64,000 nt of DNA from the NCBI GenBank assembly GCA_947170495.1, contig CAMVUB010000002.1, positions 11,781 through 75,780 on the forward strand, read 5' to 3'. A program made the position numbers and the translations under genes. Under the pieces are notes generated by a model that had not been told where the DNA came from, did no database searches, and saw nothing but the letters and a program-made list of their open reading frames with translations. The stretch comes from an uncultured Prevotellaceae bacterium. Its GTDB lineage: Bacteria > Bacteroidota > Bacteroidia > Bacteroidales > Bacteroidaceae. Below are positions 1 through 49,408 of the stretch, piece by piece (position 1 is the stretch's first letter; the number at the start of each line of letters is the position of its first letter).

Positions 1-345
1 GAGTGTCTCCATGCCGATATACGAGACCTCCACGGTAATGGCCTGCCCCTTGGGTACGGCCAGCGTGAACTTACCGTCGGCATCGGCCACGGCTCCCGCC
101 TTCGTCTCGCGCACACGGATGTTGGCACCGGGCAGCGTCTCGCCACTCGTGTCCTTCACCACACCCGTTAACAACAACTGGTCTGCGGAGATGGTAGCAG
201 GCCGTTGGGGCACAACGCCCTGCATGGGCACTTGAGCAAACAAAGCCGAAGACCCACTCCCAACCCCTCCCGTGGGGGAGGGGAGAAAAGTTACTTGAGC
301 GATTGTAAGGCTCAACGTTAATATGACTTTACACGTAATCCTCAT
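1..345 (-). CDS. TonB-dependent receptor (SusC/RagA-type), first 115 codons; gene continues past window start
   Basis: Absent from the ORF track because there is no stop in the window. From ATG 345 it reads MRITCKVILTLSLTIAQVTFLPSPTGGVGSGSSALFAQVPMQ...TGVVKDTSGETLPGANIRVRETKAGAVADADGKFTLAVPKGQAITVEVSYIGMETL. That is a signal peptide followed by the carboxypeptidase-regulatory-like domain that heads SusC-type receptors. Confidence 0.6.
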   Translation of the reverse strand, partial: MRITCKVILTLSLTIAQVTFLPSPTGGVGSGSSALFAQVPMQGVVPQRPATISADQLLLTGVVKDTSGETLPGANIRVRETKAGAVADADGKFTLAVPKGQAITVEVSYIGMETL

Positions 346-405
346 TTTGTTTTTTCTTATTCGGTAATCATCCCTCTCCCTCACGGGAGGGGTTTGGGGT
401 GGGTC
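251..405. repeat. GC-rich inverted-repeat junction cassette (arms 251-285 and 371-405)
   Basis: Arms are GACCCACTCCCAACCCCTCCCGTGGGGGAGGGGAG and TCCCTCTCCCTCACGGGAGGGGTTTGGGGTGGGTC. Confidence 0.85.
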
Positions 406-408
406 TTT

Positions 409-1582: not shown

Positions 1583-2338
1583 TTATATTCTCCCTTGTTC
1601 CTTATAGCTGTAGTAGCTGCCATCGGTGACGATGATGTGGTCCAGGAACTTGAGGTTCATGAGTTTGCATGCCCTCTGCAGGTGGTCTGTGAGTTGGTCA
1701 TCCTCGGGCGAGGGCTTGATGCTGCCCGAGGGATGGTTATGGGCGAAAGCGACGGTGGGCGCCTGACGTATCAGCGCCTCGCGCACGACCAGTCGCACAT
1801 CCACGGTCACGCCTGTGATGCCTCCTTTGCTAATGAGGAAGGGACGACCAGCGAGGCTGTTGTCGGCACGCAGGTAGATGGCATAGCTCTCCTCGTGGCC
1901 GTGGTCACGCACCAGCGGCAGCATCACGTGGTACAGATCGACGGAGGACTTCACATAGCGTTTCTCCTCAGCGGCCTCCATCAGGCGGCGCTTGCCCAGT
2001 TCGCAGGCGGCCAGGATGCTGACGGCCTTGGCGGGGCCAAGTCCCTTATAGTTCTTTGTCAAGTCGTTCAGGGACAGACGGCTCAACGTCTTCAGACTCC
2101 CCCCGCAGTCGGCCAGCAGGCGCTGCATGAGCTGCACGGCCGTCTCCTCCGTGTTGCCCGAGCCAATCAGGATGGCCAGCAACTCAGCAGGCGACAAGGC
2201 TGCCGCGCCCTGCTCCATCAACCGCTCACGCGGCCGCTCGTCTATGGGGAGTTGCTTAAGAGTTAGGGACCCACCCCCAACCCCTCCCGTAATGGAGGGG
2301 AGTTGTTGGCGCGTTGTAGTATGATGAATTTTTTCCAT
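1583..2338 (-). CDS. radC: RadC-family JAMM protein (UPF0758)
   Basis: PIDERPRERL, LSPAELLAILIGSG and a C-terminal HNHPSGSIKPSPED motif. The first ~25 codons are encoded by the repeat cassette at 2268-2426. Confidence 0.8.
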   Translation of the reverse strand: MEKIHHTTTRQQLPSITGGVGGGSLTLKQLPIDERPRERLMEQGAAALSPAELLAILIGSGNTEETAVQLMQRLLADCGGSLKTLSRLSLNDLTKNYKGLGPAKAVSILAACELGKRRLMEAAEEKRYVKSSVDLYHVMLPLVRDHGHEESYAIYLRADNSLAGRPFLISKGGITGVTVDVRLVVREALIRQAPTVAFAHNHPSGSIKPSPEDDQLTDHLQRACKLMNLKFLDHIIVTDGSYYSYKEQGRI

Positions 2339-2426
2339 TTGTTTTTTCGATATTCCGTTATTTCGATTTCCTCATCCCGTCTTTTCCCCTTCTCCCCTCC
2401 ATCACGGGAGGGGTCGGGGGTGGGTC
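2268..2426. repeat. GC-rich inverted-repeat junction cassette (arms 2268-2302 and 2392-2426)
   Basis: Arms are GACCCACCCCCAACCCCTCCCGTAATGGAGGGGAG and CTCCCCTCCATCACGGGAGGGGTCGGGGGTGGGTC. Confidence 0.85.
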
Positions 2427-3508
2427 TATTTATACAGTAACTCATTTCCATCGAAGCCTTCGTCTTTGCGCTTCAGGATCATGCGTTTCCAGAAAGCGCT
2501 GAGGAAGCCTGCGCCGTAGCCCGTCAGCTGGATGAACGAGGCGGGGATGCTGAGCAGGCCCACCCATAGACTGCGATTACGGATGGAGGAGTCTATGAGA
2601 ATGAGGAGGGAAAAGAGGAGCAGGGGGAGTAAGGCCAGCGCCATCACACCAGCGCCCAGATAGGCCACCGCCATCCCCATATTGCAACCTTCTTGCGTGC
2701 AGGTGCCCAAGCCCAGGAGCACAAGCACCAGCCCGAAGAGAAAGAGCAAGGCCAAGAGCGCACAGCCCACGGTGAAGACCGCCGGCAACGCATGCACCAG
2801 CTTCATCGTACCGGGATGCAGCAGCTGCAGGTTGATGCGCGCCACGCCTGAGTTGCGCACCTGTCGGAAGAACTTACGGAAGTCCGTGCGACGTTTGTGC
2901 CACACCCATGCATCGGGGAACAGCCGGCAACGGGCACCGGCCTCGCAGATGCGGTAGCTGAAATCGATGTCCTCGCCGAAGCGCATTTTGCGGAAGCCGC
3001 CCAGCTGCTGCCACAGCGCGCGACTCACGCCCATATTGAACGAGCGGGGGTAGAACTTGTCGAGTTTCTGTTTGCCACCTCGGATGCCACCCGTGGTGAA
3101 GAACGAGGTCATCGAGTAGCTGATGGCCTTCTGCACGGGCGTGAAGTCGGGGTGAGCACGGTCGGGACCGCCAAAGGCGTCGCAAGGCGTGTCCTCCAGT
3201 GCCGTCGTGATGGCGGCAAGATAGCCGGGCGGCAGCACCACGTCGGAGTCCAGCACGATGAGATAGTCCCCCGCAGCCCGCTCCGCACCATAGTTGCGGG
3301 CAGCCCCCGGGCCACCGTTCTCCTTCATGTAGTAATGGATGTCCAGTCGGTTGGCGAAGTGGTCACAGACCTCGCGGCAGGGAATGTCCGAGCCGTCCTC
3401 CACGATATGGACATCGAAATCCCGGCAGGTCTGCTTCGACAGGCTCGCCAGCAACTCCGCCACCTCCTGGGGGCGGTTATAGACGGGAACAATGATGCTG
3501 TATCTCAT
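2426..3508 (-). CDS. Family 2 glycosyltransferase with C-terminal membrane segments
   Basis: The start was moved to ATG 3508 (MRYSIIVPVYNRP..., VEDGSD, LDSD). The track's 61-aa extension runs through the promoter repeat. A hydrophobic C-terminus follows. Confidence 0.75.
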   Translation of the reverse strand: MRYSIIVPVYNRPQEVAELLASLSKQTCRDFDVHIVEDGSDIPCREVCDHFANRLDIHYYMKENGGPGAARNYGAERAAGDYLIVLDSDVVLPPGYLAAITTALEDTPCDAFGGPDRAHPDFTPVQKAISYSMTSFFTTGGIRGGKQKLDKFYPRSFNMGVSRALWQQLGGFRKMRFGEDIDFSYRICEAGARCRLFPDAWVWHKRRTDFRKFFRQVRNSGVARINLQLLHPGTMKLVHALPAVFTVGCALLALLFLFGLVLVLLGLGTCTQEGCNMGMAVAYLGAGVMALALLPLLLFSLLILIDSSIRNRSLWVGLLSIPASFIQLTGYGAGFLSAFWKRMILKRKDEGFDGNELLYK

Positions 3509-3530: not shown

Positions 3531-3538
3531 CAAAGATA
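3531..3538 (-). promoter_or_regulatory. -7 box TATCTTTG for GT2 gene
   Basis: 22 nt upstream of ATG 3508. Confidence 0.5.
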
Positions 3539-3542
3539 CATC

Positions 3543-3676
3543 TTTTTTAATTGACAATTGACAATTGACAGTTGAAAGTTGCCGTAAGAATCTAAAAAAT
3601 GTTCAAAATCATCCTCTTTGCAGATAAAAACTTTAAACTTTAAACCATCAACTTTAAACTTTTTATTTACCTTTGC
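3543..3676 (+). repeat. ~132-bp duplicated divergent-promoter module, copy 1
   Basis: T6-(TTGACAA)x3-GTTGAAAGTTG...TAAGAATCTAAAAAATGTTCAAAATCATCCTCTTTGCAGATAAA...(AAACTTT)n...TTACCTTTGC. Near-identical to 8723-8854. Confidence 0.9.
3668..3675 (+). promoter_or_regulatory. -7 box TACCTTTG for GH35 gene
   Basis: 35 nt upstream of ATG 3711. Terminal part of the duplicated module. Confidence 0.5.
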
Positions 3677-5861: not shown

Positions 5862-5957
5862 TGGCGCAAAATCCCTTTTGAGCCCTTGAACCCTTGAGCC
5901 CTTGAACCCTTGAACCCTTTAAACTTTAAACATTAAACTTTAAACTTTATATACAAT

Positions 5958-8722: not shown

Positions 8723-8854
8723 TTTTTTAGTTGACAATTGACAATTGACAGTTGAAAGTTGATATAAGAATCTAAAAAATGTTCAAAATCATCCTCTTTG
8801 CAGATAAATCTTTAAACTTTAAACTATCAACTTTAAACTTTTTCTTACCTTTGC
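8723..8854 (+). repeat. ~132-bp duplicated divergent-promoter module, copy 2
   Basis: See copy 1. It differs only by a handful of substitutions and two short indels, judged by eye. Confidence 0.9.
8846..8853 (+). promoter_or_regulatory. -7 box TACCTTTG for antiporter, 8 nt before ATG
   Basis: Terminal part of the duplicated module. Implies a leaderless or near-leaderless mRNA. Confidence 0.5.
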
Positions 8855-25471: not shown

Positions 25472-25482
25472 AATCGGTTAGC

Positions 25483-25554
25483 GTTTAAAGATTAAAGATT
25501 AGAGATTAAAGATTAAAGATATCCCTCAACCATAAACCCTCAACCATAAACCCC
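25483..25554 (+). repeat. Word-repeat spacer (GATTAAA/GATTAGA array, then CCCTCAACCATAAAC x2)
   Basis: Degenerate tandem 7-15-bp units between the Wzi-like and lipoprotein genes. Confidence 0.8.
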
Positions 25555-25556
25555 AC

Positions 25557-26003
25557 ATGCATAACCGCCCCCTCCTCAGCCTCTCCACGCTCCTCGTTTT
25601 CCTCCTGACGGGTTGCGACAAGGTGCCCATGAACGGTGACCTCGACGGCCTGTGGCAGCTCACCACCGTGCAAACAGATCAGGACGTCCGCGACGTGAAG
25701 AGCGACCGCGCCTATCTGTCCTTCCAGCTACATCTAACGCAATGGGATCACGTAGGCTTTCGCTACTTCGCACACTTCACCCACGAGGGTGACAGCATCC
25801 GCTTCTATGACTTCGCCCACGACTCGCTGCACCGCTCTAAGGCCGACGACAACGAATGGGTCACAGAGGAGGAGATGCGCGACGGCGCCATGGACGCCTG
25901 GGGCATCCATAACCTCGACGCGCGCTATCGTGTGCGACAGCTCGACGGCGAGGCGCTGATACTGGAAAAAGCAGATACCACACTCTTTTTCCGAAAATTC
26001 TAA
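25557..26003 (+). CDS. Small lipoprotein, lipocalin-like
   Basis: Lipobox LLTGC followed by DGLWQL..., a lipocalin-like start. Confidence 0.6.
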   Translation: MHNRPLLSLSTLLVFLLTGCDKVPMNGDLDGLWQLTTVQTDQDVRDVKSDRAYLSFQLHLTQWDHVGFRYFAHFTHEGDSIRFYDFAHDSLHRSKADDNEWVTEEEMRDGAMDAWGIHNLDARYRVRQLDGEALILEKADTTLFFRKF

Positions 26004-36629: not shown

Positions 36630-36630
36630 A

Positions 36631-36685
36631 TATCTTTAATCTTTAATCTCTAATCTTTAATCCTTAATCCTTAATCCTTAATCCA
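36631..36685 (+). repeat. Word-repeat spacer (ATCTTTA/ATCCTTA x8) at mraY-murD junction
   Basis: Fills the whole intergenic gap. It is the reverse complement of the array at 25483-25520. Confidence 0.8.
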
Positions 36686-37951
36686 TTACCGAATCTTCAG
36701 CGTGACGATAGCAAGGGCGCACATCATAATCGTGATAATCCAAAAACGGGTGGTGATCTTCGACTCCAGCCAACAGCCCTTAGGCCAGTTCAGCAGCACA
36801 CGGAAGTCTGCAGGCAGCTGTCCCGGCTTCACACGGAAGGTGTCATGGATGGGAGCCCGCTTGAAGAAACGGAGCTTCAGACCACGCTTGTTACCAAAAC
36901 GTGCATAGTTGGTCTGCAAGAGGACGCTGACACTCTCGATGAAGAAGATGAAACAGATGAGCGGCAACAGCAGCTCCTTGTGAATGATGATGGCTGTGAC
37001 TGCCACGATACCGCCGATGGCCAGCGAACCCGTGTCGCCCATGAAGATCTGTGCCGGATAGGCATTGTACCACAGGAAACCAATCAGGGCGCCCACAAAA
37101 GCCATCAGGAATACCACCAACTCCTCGGAACCTGGCACAAACATGATATTCAAGTAAGCAGCCATGTTGATGTGTGAGGACACGTAGGCGAGGATGCCGA
37201 GCGTCAGACAGATGATGGCGGAGTTGCCGGCACACATTCCGTCCATTCCATCGTTCATATTCGCACCATTGCTGACGGCCATGACGATGAAAACGGTCAC
37301 GATGACGAAGAGGATCCAGCCGGCAGCGGTCCTGTACTGCCCCAACCACAGGAAGGCATCCGAGTAGCGCAGGTTGTTGTTCTTCACGAAGGGGATGGTC
37401 GTGACGGTGCTCTTGACAGGTTCACTCGTGTGCGTAACCACCTCTACCCCATTCTGACGTTCTGTGATTACATTCTCATGCACCACAGCGTCAGGACTGA
37501 GCCACAGGACAAGGCCTACGACCAGACCCAGCAGCGCCTGACCGGCCAGCTTGAAGATTGGGCGGATGCCGTCCTTGCTCTTGGACATCTTGGTGTAATC
37601 GTCCCAGAATCCGAGCAAGCCCAGCCACACGGTAGTGCCCAGCATGAGGAGCATATAGATATTACGCAAGCGGCCCAGCAACAAGGCTGGAACGACTGTC
37701 GCCACGATGATGATGATGCCACCCATCGTGGGCACACCTTTCTTCTCGACACCATACGGGTCGATGCTGGCATCGCGCTGCTCCTCGCTGAGGTTGCGGC
37801 GTTTCATGTACTTGATGAACCACTCGCCGAACCAGGCGGAGATGATGAGGGAGAGTACCAGCGTTAAGATGGCACGGAAGGAAATATAGGTCCACAGGTG
37901 AGCACCTGAGATGCCGAATTCACTGAGATATCTAAAGAGATAGTAGAGCAT
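36686..37951 (-). CDS. mraY: Phospho-N-acetylmuramoyl-pentapeptide transferase
   Basis: Start moved to ATG 37951 (MLYYLFRYLSEFG...). The track's 49-aa extension is a translated word repeat and overlaps the murE 3' end. Confidence 0.9.
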   Translation of the reverse strand: MLYYLFRYLSEFGISGAHLWTYISFRAILTLVLSLIISAWFGEWFIKYMKRRNLSEEQRDASIDPYGVEKKGVPTMGGIIIIVATVVPALLLGRLRNIYMLLMLGTTVWLGLLGFWDDYTKMSKSKDGIRPIFKLAGQALLGLVVGLVLWLSPDAVVHENVITERQNGVEVVTHTSEPVKSTVTTIPFVKNNNLRYSDAFLWLGQYRTAAGWILFVIVTVFIVMAVSNGANMNDGMDGMCAGNSAIICLTLGILAYVSSHINMAAYLNIMFVPGSEELVVFLMAFVGALIGFLWYNAYPAQIFMGDTGSLAIGGIVAVTAIIIHKELLLPLICFIFFIESVSVLLQTNYARFGNKRGLKLRFFKRAPIHDTFRVKPGQLPADFRVLLNWPKGCWLESKITTRFWIITIMMCALAIVTLKIR

Positions 37952-38003
37952 GGTTGAGGGATGAGGGATGAGGGATGAGGGTTTATGGTTGAGGGATGAG
38001 GGT
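37952..38003 (+). repeat. Word-repeat spacer (GGATGAG/GGTTGAG) at murE-mraY junction
   Basis: Fills the whole gap. It is related to the reverse complement of 25521-25554. Confidence 0.8.
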
Positions 38004-39467
38004 TTAGAGTTCGAAGGCCTCGCGGACGACCTCGTGGTCATCGAAATGGTGCTTGACACCTTTGATGTCCTGATAGTCTTCGTGGCCTTTTCCGGCAATC
38101 AGGATGACATCGCCGGGCTGTGCCATGGCACATGCCGTACGGATGGCCTCGCGACGATCCACGATGCTGAGAACCTTGCGCTTGTCCTCGGCCGTCGTGA
38201 TGCCGGCAAGCATATCATTGATGATGTCCTGAGGCTCCTCAAAACGAGGATTGTCGGAGGTAATGATGACGCGGTCGCTGGCACGCACAGCACTCTGTGC
38301 CATCAGCGGGCGCTTGCCCTTGTCGCGATTGCCGCCAGCGCCGCAGACGGTAATGCACTGACCCTTCTTCTGCAGGATCTCATTGATCGTGGCAAGGACA
38401 TTGTCAAGGGCATCGGGAGTGTGGGCGTAATCAACGATAGCGGTGACACCTTCGCGAGAGCGGATGGTCTCAAAGCGTCCGTTGACAGGTTTCAGCGTGC
38501 TGAGCACCACAAGCACGTCCTCCGGTTTTTTGCCCAAGCAGACAGCAGCGCCATAGACGGCGAGGAGGTTCGAGACGTTGAAACGGCCGATGAATTGAAC
38601 GAAAACATTGCGGTCGTTGATGTTCAGTTCCATGCCATCGAAGCCTTCCTCCAGGATGCGGGCACGGAAGTCTGCCATCGCACGGAGGCTGTAGGTCTTC
38701 ACCGTAGCCTTGGTGTTCTGTGTCATGAAGAGGCCGTTCTTGTCATCGGCATTGGTCACCACGAAGGCGTCTGCGGGCAGACTGTCGAAGAATGCTTTCT
38801 TGGCATCCCTGTAAGCCTCCACGGTCTTGTGGTAATCGAGATGGTCGCGCGTGAGGTTGGTGAACAAGCCGCCCTTGAACTTCAGACCTGCAATGCGGTG
38901 TTGTGCCACGCTATGGGAGCTCACCTCCATGAAGGCATAGCGGCAGCCCGCATCGGCCATGCGACCGAGCAGCCGATTCAGCGTGATGGGATCGGGAGTG
39001 GTATGGCTGGTGGGGATGGCCTCATCATCGATATAGTTGCAGACGGTGGAGCAGAGTCCGCATTGATAGCCAAACGCACGGAACATCTTATATAATAAGG
39101 TGGCGATGGTCGTTTTGCCATTGGTGCCGGTGACACCGATGAGATCGAGCTTTTCTGTGGGGTCGCCGAAGAAATGATGTGCCAGGGGACCCACCACGCA
39201 CTCGCTGTCGGCAACGCGGATGAAGGTGACCTGGGGCGCAGCACTGCCAGCAAGACCATCCGGACGGCTATAGACAACAGCGGCAGCCCCCTGCTCCACA
39301 GCCTTGGGGATGAACTGATGGCCATCCACCTGCGTGCCGGGAACGGCAATGAACAGGGTTCCATCCTTCACCTGACGGGAGTCGATGGCGATATCCGTAA
39401 TCTCAATATCCTGTGCCCCCTGCACGTCAAGGGGTTGGATGACTGATAGAAGTTCCGATAGTTTCAT
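38004..39467 (-). CDS. murE: UDP-MurNAc-L-Ala-D-Glu--2,6-diaminopimelate ligase
   Basis: [10 protein letters not shown] and a DNPR motif (TSDNPRFE). Confidence 0.9.
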
Positions 39468-45613: not shown

Positions 45614-46768
45614 ATGATTACCATTAAGAAAGTAGAAAGTAAAAGCGAATTACGCGCTTTCATCCGTTTCAACTATCATCTTTATAAAGGAAATCCCTAT
45701 GCCGTGCCCGACTTCCTGGAGGACATGCTCGACACGTTCAACCGCCGTAAGAACGCAGCCTTTGAGTTCTGCGAGGCAGACCTGTTCCTGGCATATCGCG
45801 ACAAGAAAATCGTAGGCCGCGTAGCAGCCATCATCAACCACAAGGCCAACAAGACATGGCAGGCGAAGAACGTCCGCTTCGGATGGATTGACTTCATCGA
45901 GGACATCGAGGTACTGAAGGCGCTGCTGGACACCGTCGAGCAATGGGGCCGCGAGCGCGGCATGAAGAAGATCGTAGGCCCGCTGGGTTTCACGGACATG
46001 GACCCCGAGGGTATGCTCATCGACGGCTTCGACCAGCTCTCCACGATGAGTACCATCTACAACTTTCCCTACTACCCCCGCCTCATCGAGCAGCTGGGCT
46101 ATGAGAAGGAGATCGACTGGGTGGAGCGCAAGGTGATGGTCCCGACCGCCGACGAACACCAGGCCGACATGCAGAAATACTTCCGCGTGGCTGAGATGAG
46201 TATGAAGCGCTACAACCTGCACATGCGCCACTTCAAGAATGCCAGGGAGATCCTGGCCGAGGAGGACGGCAAGTACGTGCAGAAGTGCTTCAACGTCATC
46301 AACAAAGCTTACGCCGACCTCTATGGCTACTCCGAGATGAACGAGCGTCAGATCCAGCAGTACGCCACCACCTACCTGCAGTTCCTGGACATGCGCCTGC
46401 TGGCCATTGTGGAGAACGAGCAGAATGAACCCATCGCGATGGGCGTCGGCATGGGCTCCCTGTCCTATGCCCTACAGAAGGCCCACGGCAAGCTGTTCCC
46501 CTTCGGCTGGTGGCATCTGGCCAAGGCCATCTTCATCAAGCCGGCACCCGTCATCGACCTGCTGTTGGTCGGCGTGCTGCCTGAGTACCAGAACAAGGGC
46601 GTGAACGCACCGCTCTTCGCACAGATCATCAAGGTCGCCCAGAAGATGGGCTTCGTATGGGCTGAGACCCACCCGCAGCTGGAGTCCAACGAGAAGAGCC
46701 AGGGCCAGTGGGCACACCTCGACTGCACCATCCACAAGAGAAGAAGGTGCTACCAGAAGGACCTTTGA
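45614..46768 (+). CDS. GNAT-fold protein of unknown specificity
   Basis: 384 aa with GRVAAIINHKAN...RFGWIDF and a C-terminal VLPEYQNKGVNAPLF block (acetyltransferase motif A-like). Confidence 0.55.
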   Translation: MITIKKVESKSELRAFIRFNYHLYKGNPYAVPDFLEDMLDTFNRRKNAAFEFCEADLFLAYRDKKIVGRVAAIINHKANKTWQAKNVRFGWIDFIEDIEVLKALLDTVEQWGRERGMKKIVGPLGFTDMDPEGMLIDGFDQLSTMSTIYNFPYYPRLIEQLGYEKEIDWVERKVMVPTADEHQADMQKYFRVAEMSMKRYNLHMRHFKNAREILAEEDGKYVQKCFNVINKAYADLYGYSEMNERQIQQYATTYLQFLDMRLLAIVENEQNEPIAMGVGMGSLSYALQKAHGKLFPFGWWHLAKAIFIKPAPVIDLLLVGVLPEYQNKGVNAPLFAQIIKVAQKMGFVWAETHPQLESNEKSQGQWAHLDCTIHKRRRCYQKDL

Positions 46769-46899
46769 CCCCGCCCCCTTACCCCTCCCGAAGGGGAGGG
46801 GAGTAATTTCCATCAAGAACTCATATATAATAAATGGATAGCCACGATATATCAAATGATTCTACTCCCCTCCCTCGGGAGGGGCAGGGGGGTGGGGTC
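46767..46899. repeat. GC-rich inverted-repeat junction cassette (arms 46767-46803 and 46865-46899)
   Basis: Same arm family as the two cassettes above, with a 61-nt spacer. Confidence 0.85.
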
Positions 46900-48864
46900 T
46901 CTTACTCCGAAGACAATATCCGCCACCTCTCCGATATGGAGCACGTGCGCACGCGACCCGGTATGTATATCGGTAAGCTGGGCGACGGCTCCCACGCCGA
47001 GGACGGCATCTATGTGTTGCTGAAAGAAGTCATAGACAACTCCATCGATGAGTTCAAGATGAACGCCGGCAAGCGCATCGAGGTGACCATCGACGAGCAC
47101 CTGCGCGTCACCGTGCGCGACTACGGCCGTGGTATCCCCTTGGGCAAGCTGGTGGAAGCCGTGTCGATGTTGAACACGGGTGGTAAGTACGATTCCAAGG
47201 CTTTCAAGAAGAGCGTCGGCCTCAACGGCGTCGGTCTGAAAGCCGTCAACGCCCTCTCCTCGCACTTCGTAGCACAGAGCTTCCGCGATGGCGAGACGCG
47301 CCGCGCCACCTTCGAGTGTGGCCAGCTCGTCACCGACGAAGGCACCGCCAACAGCGGCGCCGCCTCCGTGGTCAACACGCTGACCGCCGACCCCGAGAAC
47401 GGCACCCTCGTCGTCTTCGAACCCGACAACAGCCTCTTCAAGAACTACCTCTTCCGCGATGAGTTCGTGGAGGTGATGCTGCGCAACTACACCTACCTGA
47501 ACACCGGCCTCGCCATCATGTTCAACGGCCGCCGCATCCTCTCCCGCAACGGCCTTGAGGACCTGCTCACCGACACAATGACCACGCAGCCCCTCTACCC
47601 CATCGTACACCTCAAGGGCGAGGACATCGAGATCGCCTTCACCCACACCAACGGACAGTACGGCGAGGAGTACCACAGCTTCGTCAACGGCCAGCACACC
47701 ACCCAGGGCGGTACCCATCAGAGCGCCTTCAAGAAATACATCGCCGAGACCATCAAGGACTTCTCCGGCAAGAACTTCGACTACAGCGATATACGCAACG
47801 GCATCGTTGCCGCCATCAGCATCAACATACAGGAACCGTTGTTCGAGAGCCAGACGAAGATCAAACTGGGCTCGCTCTCCACAGAGCCCAACGGCGGCGG
47901 TATCTCCATCGATAAGTTCATCGGTGACTTCGTGAAGGAGCAGGTCGATAACTACCTGCGCCGTAATCCCGAGGTGGCCGAGGTGCTGCTGCAGAAGGTC
48001 GGCGAGAGCGAGCGCGAGCGCAAGGCGATGGCCGGCGTGGCCAAGCTCGCCCGCGAGCGCAGCAAGAAAGCCAACCTGCACAACCGCAAGCTACGCGACT
48101 GCAAGATACATTTCAACGACCCCAAGGGCGAGCGCAAGGAAGACTCCTGCATCTTCATCACCGAGGGCGACTCCGCCAGCGGCAGCATCACCAAGAGCCG
48201 CGACGTGATGACGCAGGCCGTCTTCTCCCTCCGAGGCAAGCCCCTGAACTGCTTCGGCCTCACCAAGAAAGTGGTCTATGAGAACGAGGAGTTCAATCTC
48301 CTGCAGGCAGCCTTGAACATCGAGGATGGCCTCGACGGCCTGCGCTATAACAAAGTCATCGTGGCCACGGATGCCGATGTCGATGGCATGCATATCCGTC
48401 TGCTGATGATCACCTTCTTCCTGCAGTTCTTCCCCGAACTCATCAAGAAGGGACACGTCTATATCCTACAGACGCCGCTCTTCCGCGTGCGCCAGCGTCG
48501 CAAGAAGCTCTCCAAAGCGCGCTTAGAGGCCATTGGCGAGGCAGACTCCAAGGGTGACTTCATCACGCGCTACTGCTACAGCGAGGAGGAACGCCAGCAG
48601 AACATCGAAGCCCTCGGGCCGGAGCCTGAGATCACGCGCTTCAAAGGTCTCGGTGAAATCAGCCCCGATGAATTCCGCGGTTTCATCGGCGAAGACATCC
48701 GTCTGGAACAGGTCTCGCTGCATAAGAGTGACCAGGTAGCAGAGCTGCTGGAGTACTACATGGGCAAGAACACCCTCGAACGCCAGAACTTCATCATCGA
48801 CAACCTCGTCATCGAAGAAGATAGGGCAGAGGATGAGGAGGAAGAGCATGAATATAAGGTATAG
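46834..48864 (+). CDS. parE: Type IIA topoisomerase subunit B (topoisomerase IV ParE-type)
   Basis: [15 protein letters not shown] ATPase motifs, Toprim ([14 protein letters not shown]). The first ~22 codons are encoded by the repeat cassette. Confidence 0.85.
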
Positions 48865-48883: not shown

Positions 48884-49408
48884 ATGAGTAACCACCATAT
48901 CACAAATGATTCTACTCCCCTCCCCCCCCGGGAGGGGCAGGGGGGTGGGGTCTTATTATTCCCAGGCAGCTTCGACCCTTTCACCCTTGGCCACGCAGAC
49001 GTGGTTGAGCGTGCGCTGCAGCTGTTCGACGAGGTGGTGATTGCGGTGGGCATCAACGAGCAGAAGGCCGGATGGATACCTGTCGAGGAACGAGTGCGAG
49101 CCATACGTATATTATATAAGGAACAGGCGCGCGTGCGCGTGGAGAGCTACAGCGGCCTCACCACCGATTTTGCCTATTCCATCGGTGCAAAAGCCATCCT
49201 GCGGGGCGTGCGCAGCATCAAGGACTTCGAGTACGAGATGCAGATGGCCGACGTCAACCGCCAGCTCACAGGCATCGACACCGTCGTCCTCTTCACCGAT
49301 CCCCGCTACGCCTCCCTCTCCAGCTCCCTCGTCCGCGAGCTCGCCCACTTCGGCAAGGACATCACAGCCTTCCTGCCGGAAGGTTTTCTATTGAAGAATG
49401 TTGATTGA
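48884..49408 (+). CDS. coaD: Pantetheine-phosphate adenylyltransferase
   Basis: FPGSFDPFTLGH plus SSSLVRE. The N-terminal 22 aa come from a half cassette. Confidence 0.85.
   Translation: MSNHHITNDSTPLPPREGQGGGVLLFPGSFDPFTLGHADVVERALQLFDEVVIAVGINEQKAGWIPVEERVRAIRILYKEQARVRVESYSGLTTDFAYSIGAKAILRGVRSIKDFEYEMQMADVNRQLTGIDTVVLFTDPRYASLSSSLVRELAHFGKDITAFLPEGFLLKNVD
48915..48952 (+). repeat. Solo right arm of the same cassette family
   Basis: CTCCCCTCCCCCCCCGGGAGGGGCAGGGGGGTGGGGTC. It is preceded by the same ATATCA(C/A)AAATGATTCTA motif as the parE copy. Confidence 0.8.

Follow-up and report, generated by a model that had tools for sequence, protein, structure and literature searches.

We found that the 159-nt inverted-repeat element at positions 2268-2426 (minus strand), at the junction of a GT2 glycosyltransferase gene and radC, is probably one copy of a family of non-autonomous, REP/MITE-like mobile cassettes in rumen Prevotella that re-supply a stop codon and a start codon. 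Positions refer to the window, the whole 64-kb stretch of DNA that we analyzed, which derives from a metagenome-assembled genome (MAG) of 2.33 Mb with 55.6% G+C. In the course of events that we favor, the cassette would have landed in, or replaced, a four-base ATGA overlap of GT2 and radC, and its insertion would have destroyed both the native radC ATG and the GT2 TGA. GT2 would then gain a new TAG, completed by the first bases of the element. The loop would bring a leader that is A-rich and unstructured, followed by an ATG whose context is good for Shine-Dalgarno-independent initiation, and the stop-free G-rich right arm would let translation exit the element into radC, adding 24 residues. 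Both genes would stay intact because the element supplies the stop and the start that were lost.

The minus-strand reading and the list of open reading frames define the parts of the element. Two 35-nt arms (2392-2426 and 2268-2302) that are 94% complementary flank an 89-nt spacer. The upstream GT2 coding sequence (2429-3508, minus strand; Pfam Glycos_transf_2, 2.2e-27) ends ...LLYK, and its TAG stop (2428-2426) is composed of a native T and A and of a G (2426) that opens the left arm, GACCCACCCCCGACCCC..., so that stop and arm share a base, as the first-pass annotation of this DNA had proposed. The left arm (2392-2426), which is C-rich on the gene strand, consists of a GACCCACCCCCGA tail and a CCCCTCC/GGAGGGG hairpin and alone folds at -14.2 kcal/mol. 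Next comes an A-rich leader of CGAAATA-type heptamer words (2339-2391), homologous to the leaders of unlinked cassettes, whose last bases before the ATG at 2338-2336 are CGGAATATCGAAAAAACAA. This element-supplied ATG is most likely the radC start, as judged from its initiation context (see below), and it lies inside the spacer, as previously claimed. Eleven element-encoded codons (EKIHHTTTRQQ, 2303-2335) follow, with related peptides in other cassettes, and they include a ACGCGCCAAC box (2303-2314) that adjoins the right arm; the consensus of this box, CGCGCCAGCC, recurs beside 39 arms. The right arm (2268-2302), which is G-rich on the gene strand, is translated LPSITGGVGGG(S), a frame and peptide that recur in at least 11 other genes. 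Its translation in the radC frame as LPSITGGVGGGS, followed by LTLKQLPIDERPRERL, agrees with the earlier reading.

Together, these parts would give RadC an element-encoded N-terminal extension of 24 residues, MEKIHHTTTRQQLPSITGGVGGGS. The conserved body of the protein (1583-2267 on the minus strand, including the stop) matches both UPF0758_N and the RadC-like JAB domain (Pfam 2.1e-27 and 4.4e-32), and these matches begin at residue 28, past the extension. Direct reading shows that the G-rich arm is stop-free in all three frames and that the C-rich arm is open in two of three, its closed frame terminating in the hairpin loop. The list of reading frames has no transposase-sized entry within the 159 nt. 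We additionally observed that the arm-encoded peptides are Gly/Ser/Pro-rich and linker-like, a composition that would explain why they are tolerated. The tryptic RadC peptide that spans the arm would be QQLPSITGGVGGGSLTLK.

Comparison with relatives demonstrated that the element is an insertion. In most relatives from the genus, the GT2 stop and the radC start overlap by 4 nt as ATGA with no spacer; the junction reads ...AAATGAAC... and RadC begins MNIKDLP. The string ...TA(C/T)AAATGAA... is found at the junction in no fewer than 13 genomes of the genus and in several metagenome contigs, and the relatives carry AAATGA where the window has the GT2 TAG. Because the ATGA state has zero intergenic bases, the arms, the leader, and the ATG are all added material. 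The left junction falls after AAAT and the AG of the element completes TAG, leaving the end of the GT2 protein (LYK) unaltered. The right junction, GGGTCC-CTAACTCTT, is not derivable from the ancestral GAACCTC without extra changes, and native bases were also lost at other cassette junctions, with native codons and spacers replaced. Thus, either the event was not a clean cut-and-paste insertion or further mutation occurred afterwards. In 37 relatives, the alignable part of the RadC homologs starts at query residue 23-28. It had been suggested that orthologous radC genes with an unrelated, repeat-free N-terminus of the same length and a mapped start elsewhere would refute the cassette reading; orthologous RadC proteins do have repeat-free N-termini, but they start about 24 residues later, which indicates that the extension is new rather than that the cassette reading is wrong.

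The insertion is also polymorphic within the species. Of two metagenome contigs from the same species (97-98% DNA identity), L139 has the cassette and L140 does not. By our own reading of the printed sequences, L139 differs by one substitution within the cassette and one just past it, and since it comes from an independent assembly, it argues against an assembly artefact. In L140, radC starts ATGAACCTCAAGCAA (MNLKQLPIDERPRERL; the start is also given as ATGAACCTCAAG), and a 512-nt segment with a gene for a four-helix bundle of the 23S-rRNA-IVS type is located between GT2 and radC. The radC reading frame is intact and 99-100% identical between strains.

A profile search identified 161 copies of the arm in the MAG, 85 of which carry at most one mismatch in a 21-nt core. 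The number of pairs in "+-" orientation was 31 by strict criteria and as high as 70 by loose ones, versus zero in "-+" orientation: neighboring arms always face outward, with their GACCC ends outside, and 99 of the 161 are unpaired. Across the genus, the core was found in 62 of 121 sampled genomes (0 to 85 copies each), with 0 matches to a reversed-pattern control in the 121 genomes, and the genome of the window has the highest copy number among the 121. The 21-nt core is identical across species whose RadC proteins are only 45-80% identical. Among the matches listed, the repeat-bearing genomes are those of rumen Prevotella/Prevotellaceae; the arm is also multi-copy in Sphingomonadales, where it forms tail-to-tail doublets. 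Viral contigs yielded only four matching stretches, so phages are no obvious vector. We found no description of this arm family in Prevotella in the literature searched.

Most arms in the MAG (143/161) overlap stop-to-stop coding frames, 65 of them internally. We located 48 arms no more than 200 nt into a reading frame, and in almost all of these the sense strand is the G-rich one. In metH, two single in-frame arms occupy variable linkers and are absent in five relatives, and other MAGs have single in-frame arms in a receptor, a glycosidase, and an anti-sigma factor. Fusion to an upstream stop codon is likewise recurrent, with 22 arms adjoining the stop of a co-oriented upstream gene. The upstream stop is at offsets -1 to +2 from GACCC for 28 of 139 arms, compared to a chance expectation of about 0.2 arms (by our own arithmetic, with about 1665 genes in 2.33 Mb), and 28 of the 38 co-oriented stops no more than 45 nt from an arm sit at these offsets. 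For nine additional arms, the stop of the upstream gene is inside the arm.

The complementarity of the arms raises the alternative that the pair is a selected RNA device controlling GT2/radC expression, possibly as a site of RNase III cleavage, a block to 3'-exonucleases, or a structure near the stop that stalls ribosomes, and that its likeness to a mobile element is secondary. The RNA of the element is predicted to form a very stable 35-bp stem (-89.9 kcal/mol, z = -10.75) that leaves the ATG in an open loop. This stem starts at the final nucleotide of the GT2 stop, and both differences between the arms of the radC copy allow G-U pairing on the sense strand. For REP, ERIC, and Correia repeats, effects on the stability of mRNA, on processing by RNase III, or on termination-coupled stalling have been reported. 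However, arm mismatches over 40 cassettes were not biased toward the sense strand (25 G-U on that strand and 28 A-C), so that the complementarity looks like a DNA-level property of terminal repeats. Moreover, the presence of the pair is polymorphic within the species and patchy across the genus, single arms are scattered in frame inside genes such as metH, and Rfam returned just sub-threshold matches to plant miRNA precursors, due to the long hairpin. We consider a selected RNA device unlikely. The 35-bp duplex is better regarded as a probable by-product of the terminal inverted repeats, and the stem may physically affect the mRNA.

As for transcription, a scan of 2150-2550 found no terminator-like or sigma-70-like site, and a pattern search for the -7 box TAnnTTTG found none within the cassette. 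The sole -7-like box on the minus strand between 1037 and 3538 is TATCTTTG at 3531-3538, which resembles the Bacteroidota -7 box and lies upstream of GT2. GT2 and radC are thus probably one transcript, in which the cassette is intercistronic.

Bacteroidota initiate translation without Shine-Dalgarno pairing, on unstructured A-rich mRNA (PMC6847099). We scored initiation context with a position matrix trained on 119 native genes with unambiguous starts. The ATG at 2338 scored 12.0, which is higher than any of 3348 internal ATGs and at the 80th percentile among true starts, while the downstream radC candidates scored -10.8 to -16.2, below every true start. On the basis of these scores we take ATG 2338 as the radC start, and it is probably the one actually used. 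The first-pass annotation had also stated that no start codon separates the arm from the conserved block, and indeed the next in-frame ATG, GTG, or TTG is a TTG at 2221, within the block. Initiation of radC at an internal or non-canonical codon, or decay of the gene, with the open frame of the arm an accident, would leave the cassette ATG unused. Read-through is cheap in a G-rich arm that is open in three frames, and RadC is dispensable in model bacteria. We nevertheless find this somewhat less likely still than a selected RNA structure: the reading frame is maintained between strains, the contexts of the downstream candidates are the poor ones given above, starting at them would remove the conserved ERPRERL block, and hisB, hisC, and a 676-aa topoisomerase-like reading frame rely on the same arrangement.

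The his operon of this genome carries cassettes between hisD and hisC and between hisC and hisB. At the hisC-hisB junction, genome G005 has an ATGA overlap, G000 and G020 have the cassette, and G022 has a cassette of a different arm subfamily, again with the ATG in the spacer. The FIDRDGT motif of hisB, the phosphatase active-site motif, follows directly after the arm, and the next in-frame start past the arm is 135 nt downstream. A start at that position would remove FIDRDGT, so initiation must be upstream of the arm. At two further junctions the native start is likewise replaced, and one such cassette is common to the closest sampled species (G046). Within the window, a third cassette (46766-46900, plus strand) has a variant arm to which the TGA of the upstream gene is fused, and its ATG at 46834 starts the 676-aa reading frame, which we read, without a domain search, as topoisomerase B-subunit-like.

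The cassettes share an internal plan. When oriented by the downstream gene, 19 complete cassettes in the genome show one order of parts: arm, first box, A/T-rich leader, ATG, 5-12 codons, second box, and arm. One inner end carries a GCCTGCGG-type box beside the arm, and the other carries a GGCTGGCGCG box, which is CGCGCCAGCC on the gene strand; the leaders are often tandem CGAAATA-like heptamers. At least 16 genes of the genome, including hisB and hisC, start inside cassettes, with peptides of the M..RQPLPSLTGGVGGGS type (among them MSNKTTSRQPLPSLTGGVGGGS, MSNNKSKRQPLPSLTGGVGGGS, and MKQDIESLRQPLPSLTGGVGGGS) and with three different frames through the G-rich arm in use, and the same peptides occur in other Prevotellaceae MAGs. 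Under a stricter definition that gave 40 cassettes (14 here and 26 in other MAGs), an ATG from which the frame stays open across the right arm was present in 13/14 cassettes here and 18/26 in the other Prevotellaceae MAGs, compared to 4/14 and 5/26 on the reverse strand. The spacers are related even when arms and boxes are excluded: 11 of 171 pairs beat the best of 1500 shuffles, and the best pairs are identical at 43/48 and 38/42 positions.

These data bear on the earlier suggestion that the arms and the A-rich leader travel together as one unit, which now finds support in the spacer-free ancestral junction, in the shared order of parts and the homologous spacers at unlinked loci, and in the directionality of the open ATG (31/40 versus 9/40 on the reverse strand). 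The suggestion had been built on the likeness of the radC leader to the spacer at 251-405, and this comparison was the weakest part of the case. The likeness is real, with a local match of 20/24 whose score was reached by 10 of 2000 shuffles, but it is modest and at a different offset, and a global MAFFT alignment of 2268-2426 with 251-405 leaves the part before the ATG unaligned, the similarity appearing in local alignment. The radC spacer has better matches elsewhere in the genome, namely 33/40 to the hisC-hisB cassette and 31/37 to a cassette elsewhere on the contig, beyond the window.

That the arms are instead two independent REP-type hairpins, inserted separately around a pre-existing leader and start with no travelling unit, is the least likely of the readings that we considered, because, while it would account for the many unpaired arms, for half cassettes with a left arm, leader, and ATG but no right arm (C6 53195 and C21 28577), and for similar heptamer leaders in arm-free intergenic regions of relatives, it conflicts with an ancestral ATGA junction without any spacer, with the homology of arm-adjacent boxes and whole spacers between unlinked loci, and with the exclusively outward orientation of the pairs. 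Parts of the leader could be native-like rather than element-specific sequence, and the arm-free heptamer leaders suggest that the family may stem from two arms capturing a native gene start. For the mobile-cassette reading that we prefer, we infer that leader and ATG form a module that belongs to the element itself and is adaptive, enabling the element to survive in operon junctions.

With respect to mobilization, the flanks of 22 pairs contained no target-site duplication, only an A...T that extends the inverted repeat. We found no transposase tied to the arms, in a search for a parent IS that is limited by the source MAG being 79% complete. Arm pairs 0.7-2.6 kb apart at other MAG loci enclose ordinary genes and not transposases. 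Two Y1 HUH proteins (383 and 429 aa) resemble REP-associated tyrosine transposases (RAYTs), and sequence search found no PDB relative for them. We rejected them as the cognate RAYT for the following reasons: They score 35-43 bits against the 80-bit cut-off of NF047646; they are multi-copy and present in many arm-free genomes; and no arms flank them at 7 loci. A clear RAYT is likewise absent from the Sphingomonad genomes that share the arm.

REPINs are REP doublets that form hairpins and are mobilized by RAYT transposases (PMC3116915, PMC3337134). The Prevotella element resembles REPs and REPINs in its short G+C-rich palindromic arm with a conserved linear tail (PMC3116915, PMC3337134), in inverted doublets that fold as one long hairpin beside many decayed singletons, and in its tens to hundreds of copies per genome, lack of target duplication, and copy number that is patchy from one related species to the next. 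Each arm also folds by itself, as a REP unit does. It differs from them in that no RAYT here is above threshold and none is flanked by arms, in that many arms are not extragenic (the 65 inside reading frames), in a long cassette spacer (about 30-200 nt) that carries a leader and an ATG, and in a doublet that faces outward. Small size, terminal inverted repeats, the lack of a transposase reading frame, and many dispersed copies are as in MITEs; the target-site duplication of MITEs is missing.

A third comparison is with the Rickettsia palindromic elements (RPEs; Ogata et al. 2000, summarized in PMC10969869). The likeness lies in palindromic mobile repeats of about 100-150 bp that occur in frame in unrelated housekeeping genes and encode a family-specific peptide (PMC10969869), and that are tolerated in variable or surface regions, as are the two arms in metH here. 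In-frame insertion of a peptide that orthologs lack is what we found in the RadC N-terminus, hisB, hisC, and the metH linkers. RPEs, according to that review (PMC10969869), are internal in-frame insertions, whereas the Prevotella cassette also lies exactly at stop/start junctions, to which it brings a start codon and a leader. The sequences are probably unrelated, as is the host phylum, and homology to the Rickettsia RPE families is unlikely given the host phylum and the G+C-rich arm. Overall, the element appears to work like a cross between a REPIN, a MITE, and an RPE. Taken strictly, it fails as a MITE in having no target-site duplication, with no parent IS found in the 79%-complete MAG, and as a REPIN, with no cognate RAYT and arms that are not extragenic.

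Correia elements of Neisseria duplicate TA and carry promoter and IHF sites. In contrast, no target-site duplication, promoter, or terminator was seen in the Prevotella cassette. ERIC/RU (Delihas 2007, PMC2759123) and Correia elements are similar to it in being small elements with inverted repeats that lie in transcribed intergenic parts of operons, can extend or fuse annotated reading frames, and can form long RNA hairpins (PMC2759123). For neither of them did we find a description of a conserved internal initiation module in the literature searched. The Shine-Dalgarno-independent starts of Flavobacterium johnsoniae (Baez et al. 2019, PMC6847099) resemble the cassette in the unstructured A-rich loop before the ATG and the lack of a Shine-Dalgarno sequence. 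Unlike such Bacteroidota initiation regions (PMC6847099), the sequence here is a repeated, apparently mobile cassette and not the gene's own 5' region, and the radC cassette has C rather than the preferred A at -3. In the literature searched, we found no description of the conserved internal leader-plus-ATG module or of such precise occupation of stop/start junctions.

On its own, the radC copy is unremarkable; the interest lies in the family to which it belongs. If our reading of the family is correct, a selfish repeat colonizes operon junctions, even 4-nt overlaps, and spares the downstream gene by means of its own start. This would explain odd low-complexity N-termini of the M..RQPLPSLTGGVGGGS type and internal Gly/Pro-rich inserts in Prevotella annotations, and it would affect start-codon calls and protein clustering for Prevotella MAGs. 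The module would be a natural, compact, Shine-Dalgarno-independent initiation module and a candidate genetic part for Bacteroidota, and strain-level differences in cassette content, like that at GT2-radC, would provide markers for the population genomics of rumen Prevotella. More tentatively, and with clearly less confidence than in the family assignment, we propose that a REP-type palindrome has become part of a mobile "portable intercistronic region" that splits stop/start overlaps within operons or replaces short junctions and re-supplies both signals. A transposable element would in that case have adapted to the tightest part of the genome and would be rewriting the N-termini of housekeeping proteins.

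We counted four occurrences of the arm motif in the window, compared to 0.00 expected from 100 shuffles. The copy whose spacer was compared above belongs to a sister cassette at 249-407 (minus strand), which is located at the junction of an lpxH-like gene and a gene for a SusC-like receptor and again has 35-nt arms and an 89-nt spacer. This cassette belongs to a different inner subfamily than the radC cassette, and the inner module of its subfamily reads like the start of a signal peptide.

The arm recurs at gene starts and stops beyond the GT2–radC junction. A junction cassette with a variant arm lies at window positions 46766–46900, where the upstream gene's TGA stop codon is fused with the arm, and an ATG (46834) starts a 676-aa ORF; we read this ORF as a putative topoisomerase B-subunit-like gene. 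The gene that follows it starts at ATG 48884, and its reading frame runs through a solitary right arm (48915–48953; region 48884–48953). In the his operon of the same MAG (L158, G000:C3:55300–59800), two cassettes occupy the hisD–hisC and hisC–hisB junctions, and left arms supply the stop codons of hisD and hisC, whose products end inside the arm as ..THPQPLP-stop and ..RPTP-stop. We additionally found tandem 9-nt units, GGGTCTGCN, downstream of a right arm (L157:1880–1926; also L190, a locus of the closest sampled species, G046). These units are an expanded terminus of the arm and encode AGS repeats located at the new N-terminus of a response-regulator-like gene, with a unit count that differs between the window's genome and G046. 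Single arms also occur inside a gene: metH (L159, G000:C4:7700–11200) carries two in frame, translated as TPLPNGRGQGVG and LPSLTGGVGGGS. Both fall in variable linkers, and five relatives have unrelated linker sequence at these positions.

The GT2–radC junction is a hot spot for insertions. In another strain, represented by a same-species metagenome contig, the junction holds a 512-nt insert (L140:974–1503) that codes for a 129-aa four-helix-bundle protein of the 23S-rRNA-intervening-sequence type and is flanked by inverted TGAAAAA-type heptamer repeats. L141 and L142 also carry this insert, and the G046 junction has a remnant-like 33-nt spacer.

Every G-rich arm contains four G-tracts (GGG-A-GGGG-TT-GGGGG-T-GGG; window 2268–2286, minus strand), which match the textbook motif for a predicted G-quadruplex; the C-rich arm is the complement.

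A Y1 HUH domain lies at the N-terminus of two proteins, of 383 aa (..MPDHLHG.., L154:1180–2328, plus strand) and 429 aa (..MPDHFHV.., L155:706–1992, minus strand). Both bear a distant likeness to REP-associated tyrosine transposases, and their C-terminal halves are uncharacterised. The family is multi-copy, with eight matches in the window's genome, and was found in 67 of the 121 genus genomes.

Five genomes of Sphingomonadales, among them Sphingobium, Novosphingobium and Polymorphobacter, also carry the 35-nt arm, GACCCACCCCCGACCCCTCCCGT...GGGAGGGGAG, in multiple copies (Sphingomonadales contigs L032, L035, L060, L065 and L085). One REP is common to two phyla. Each genome carries 9–25 copies at one mismatch or fewer, compared to none for the reversed control. 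Sphingomonadales doublets are arranged tail-to-tail, about 30–50 nt apart, the opposite of the arrangement in Prevotella.

Heptamers in the cassette leaders are of the CGAAATA type. Many intergenic regions of the window are made up of short units repeated in tandem every 7 nt (1177–1212, 1552–1581, 3545–3575, 3627–3667, 5913–5953, 8806–8846, 25478–25559, 36630–36696 and 37952–38007), the sequences of which differ by region (CAATTGT, AATTGTA, TTTAAAC, TTAATCC, GGTTGAG and others).
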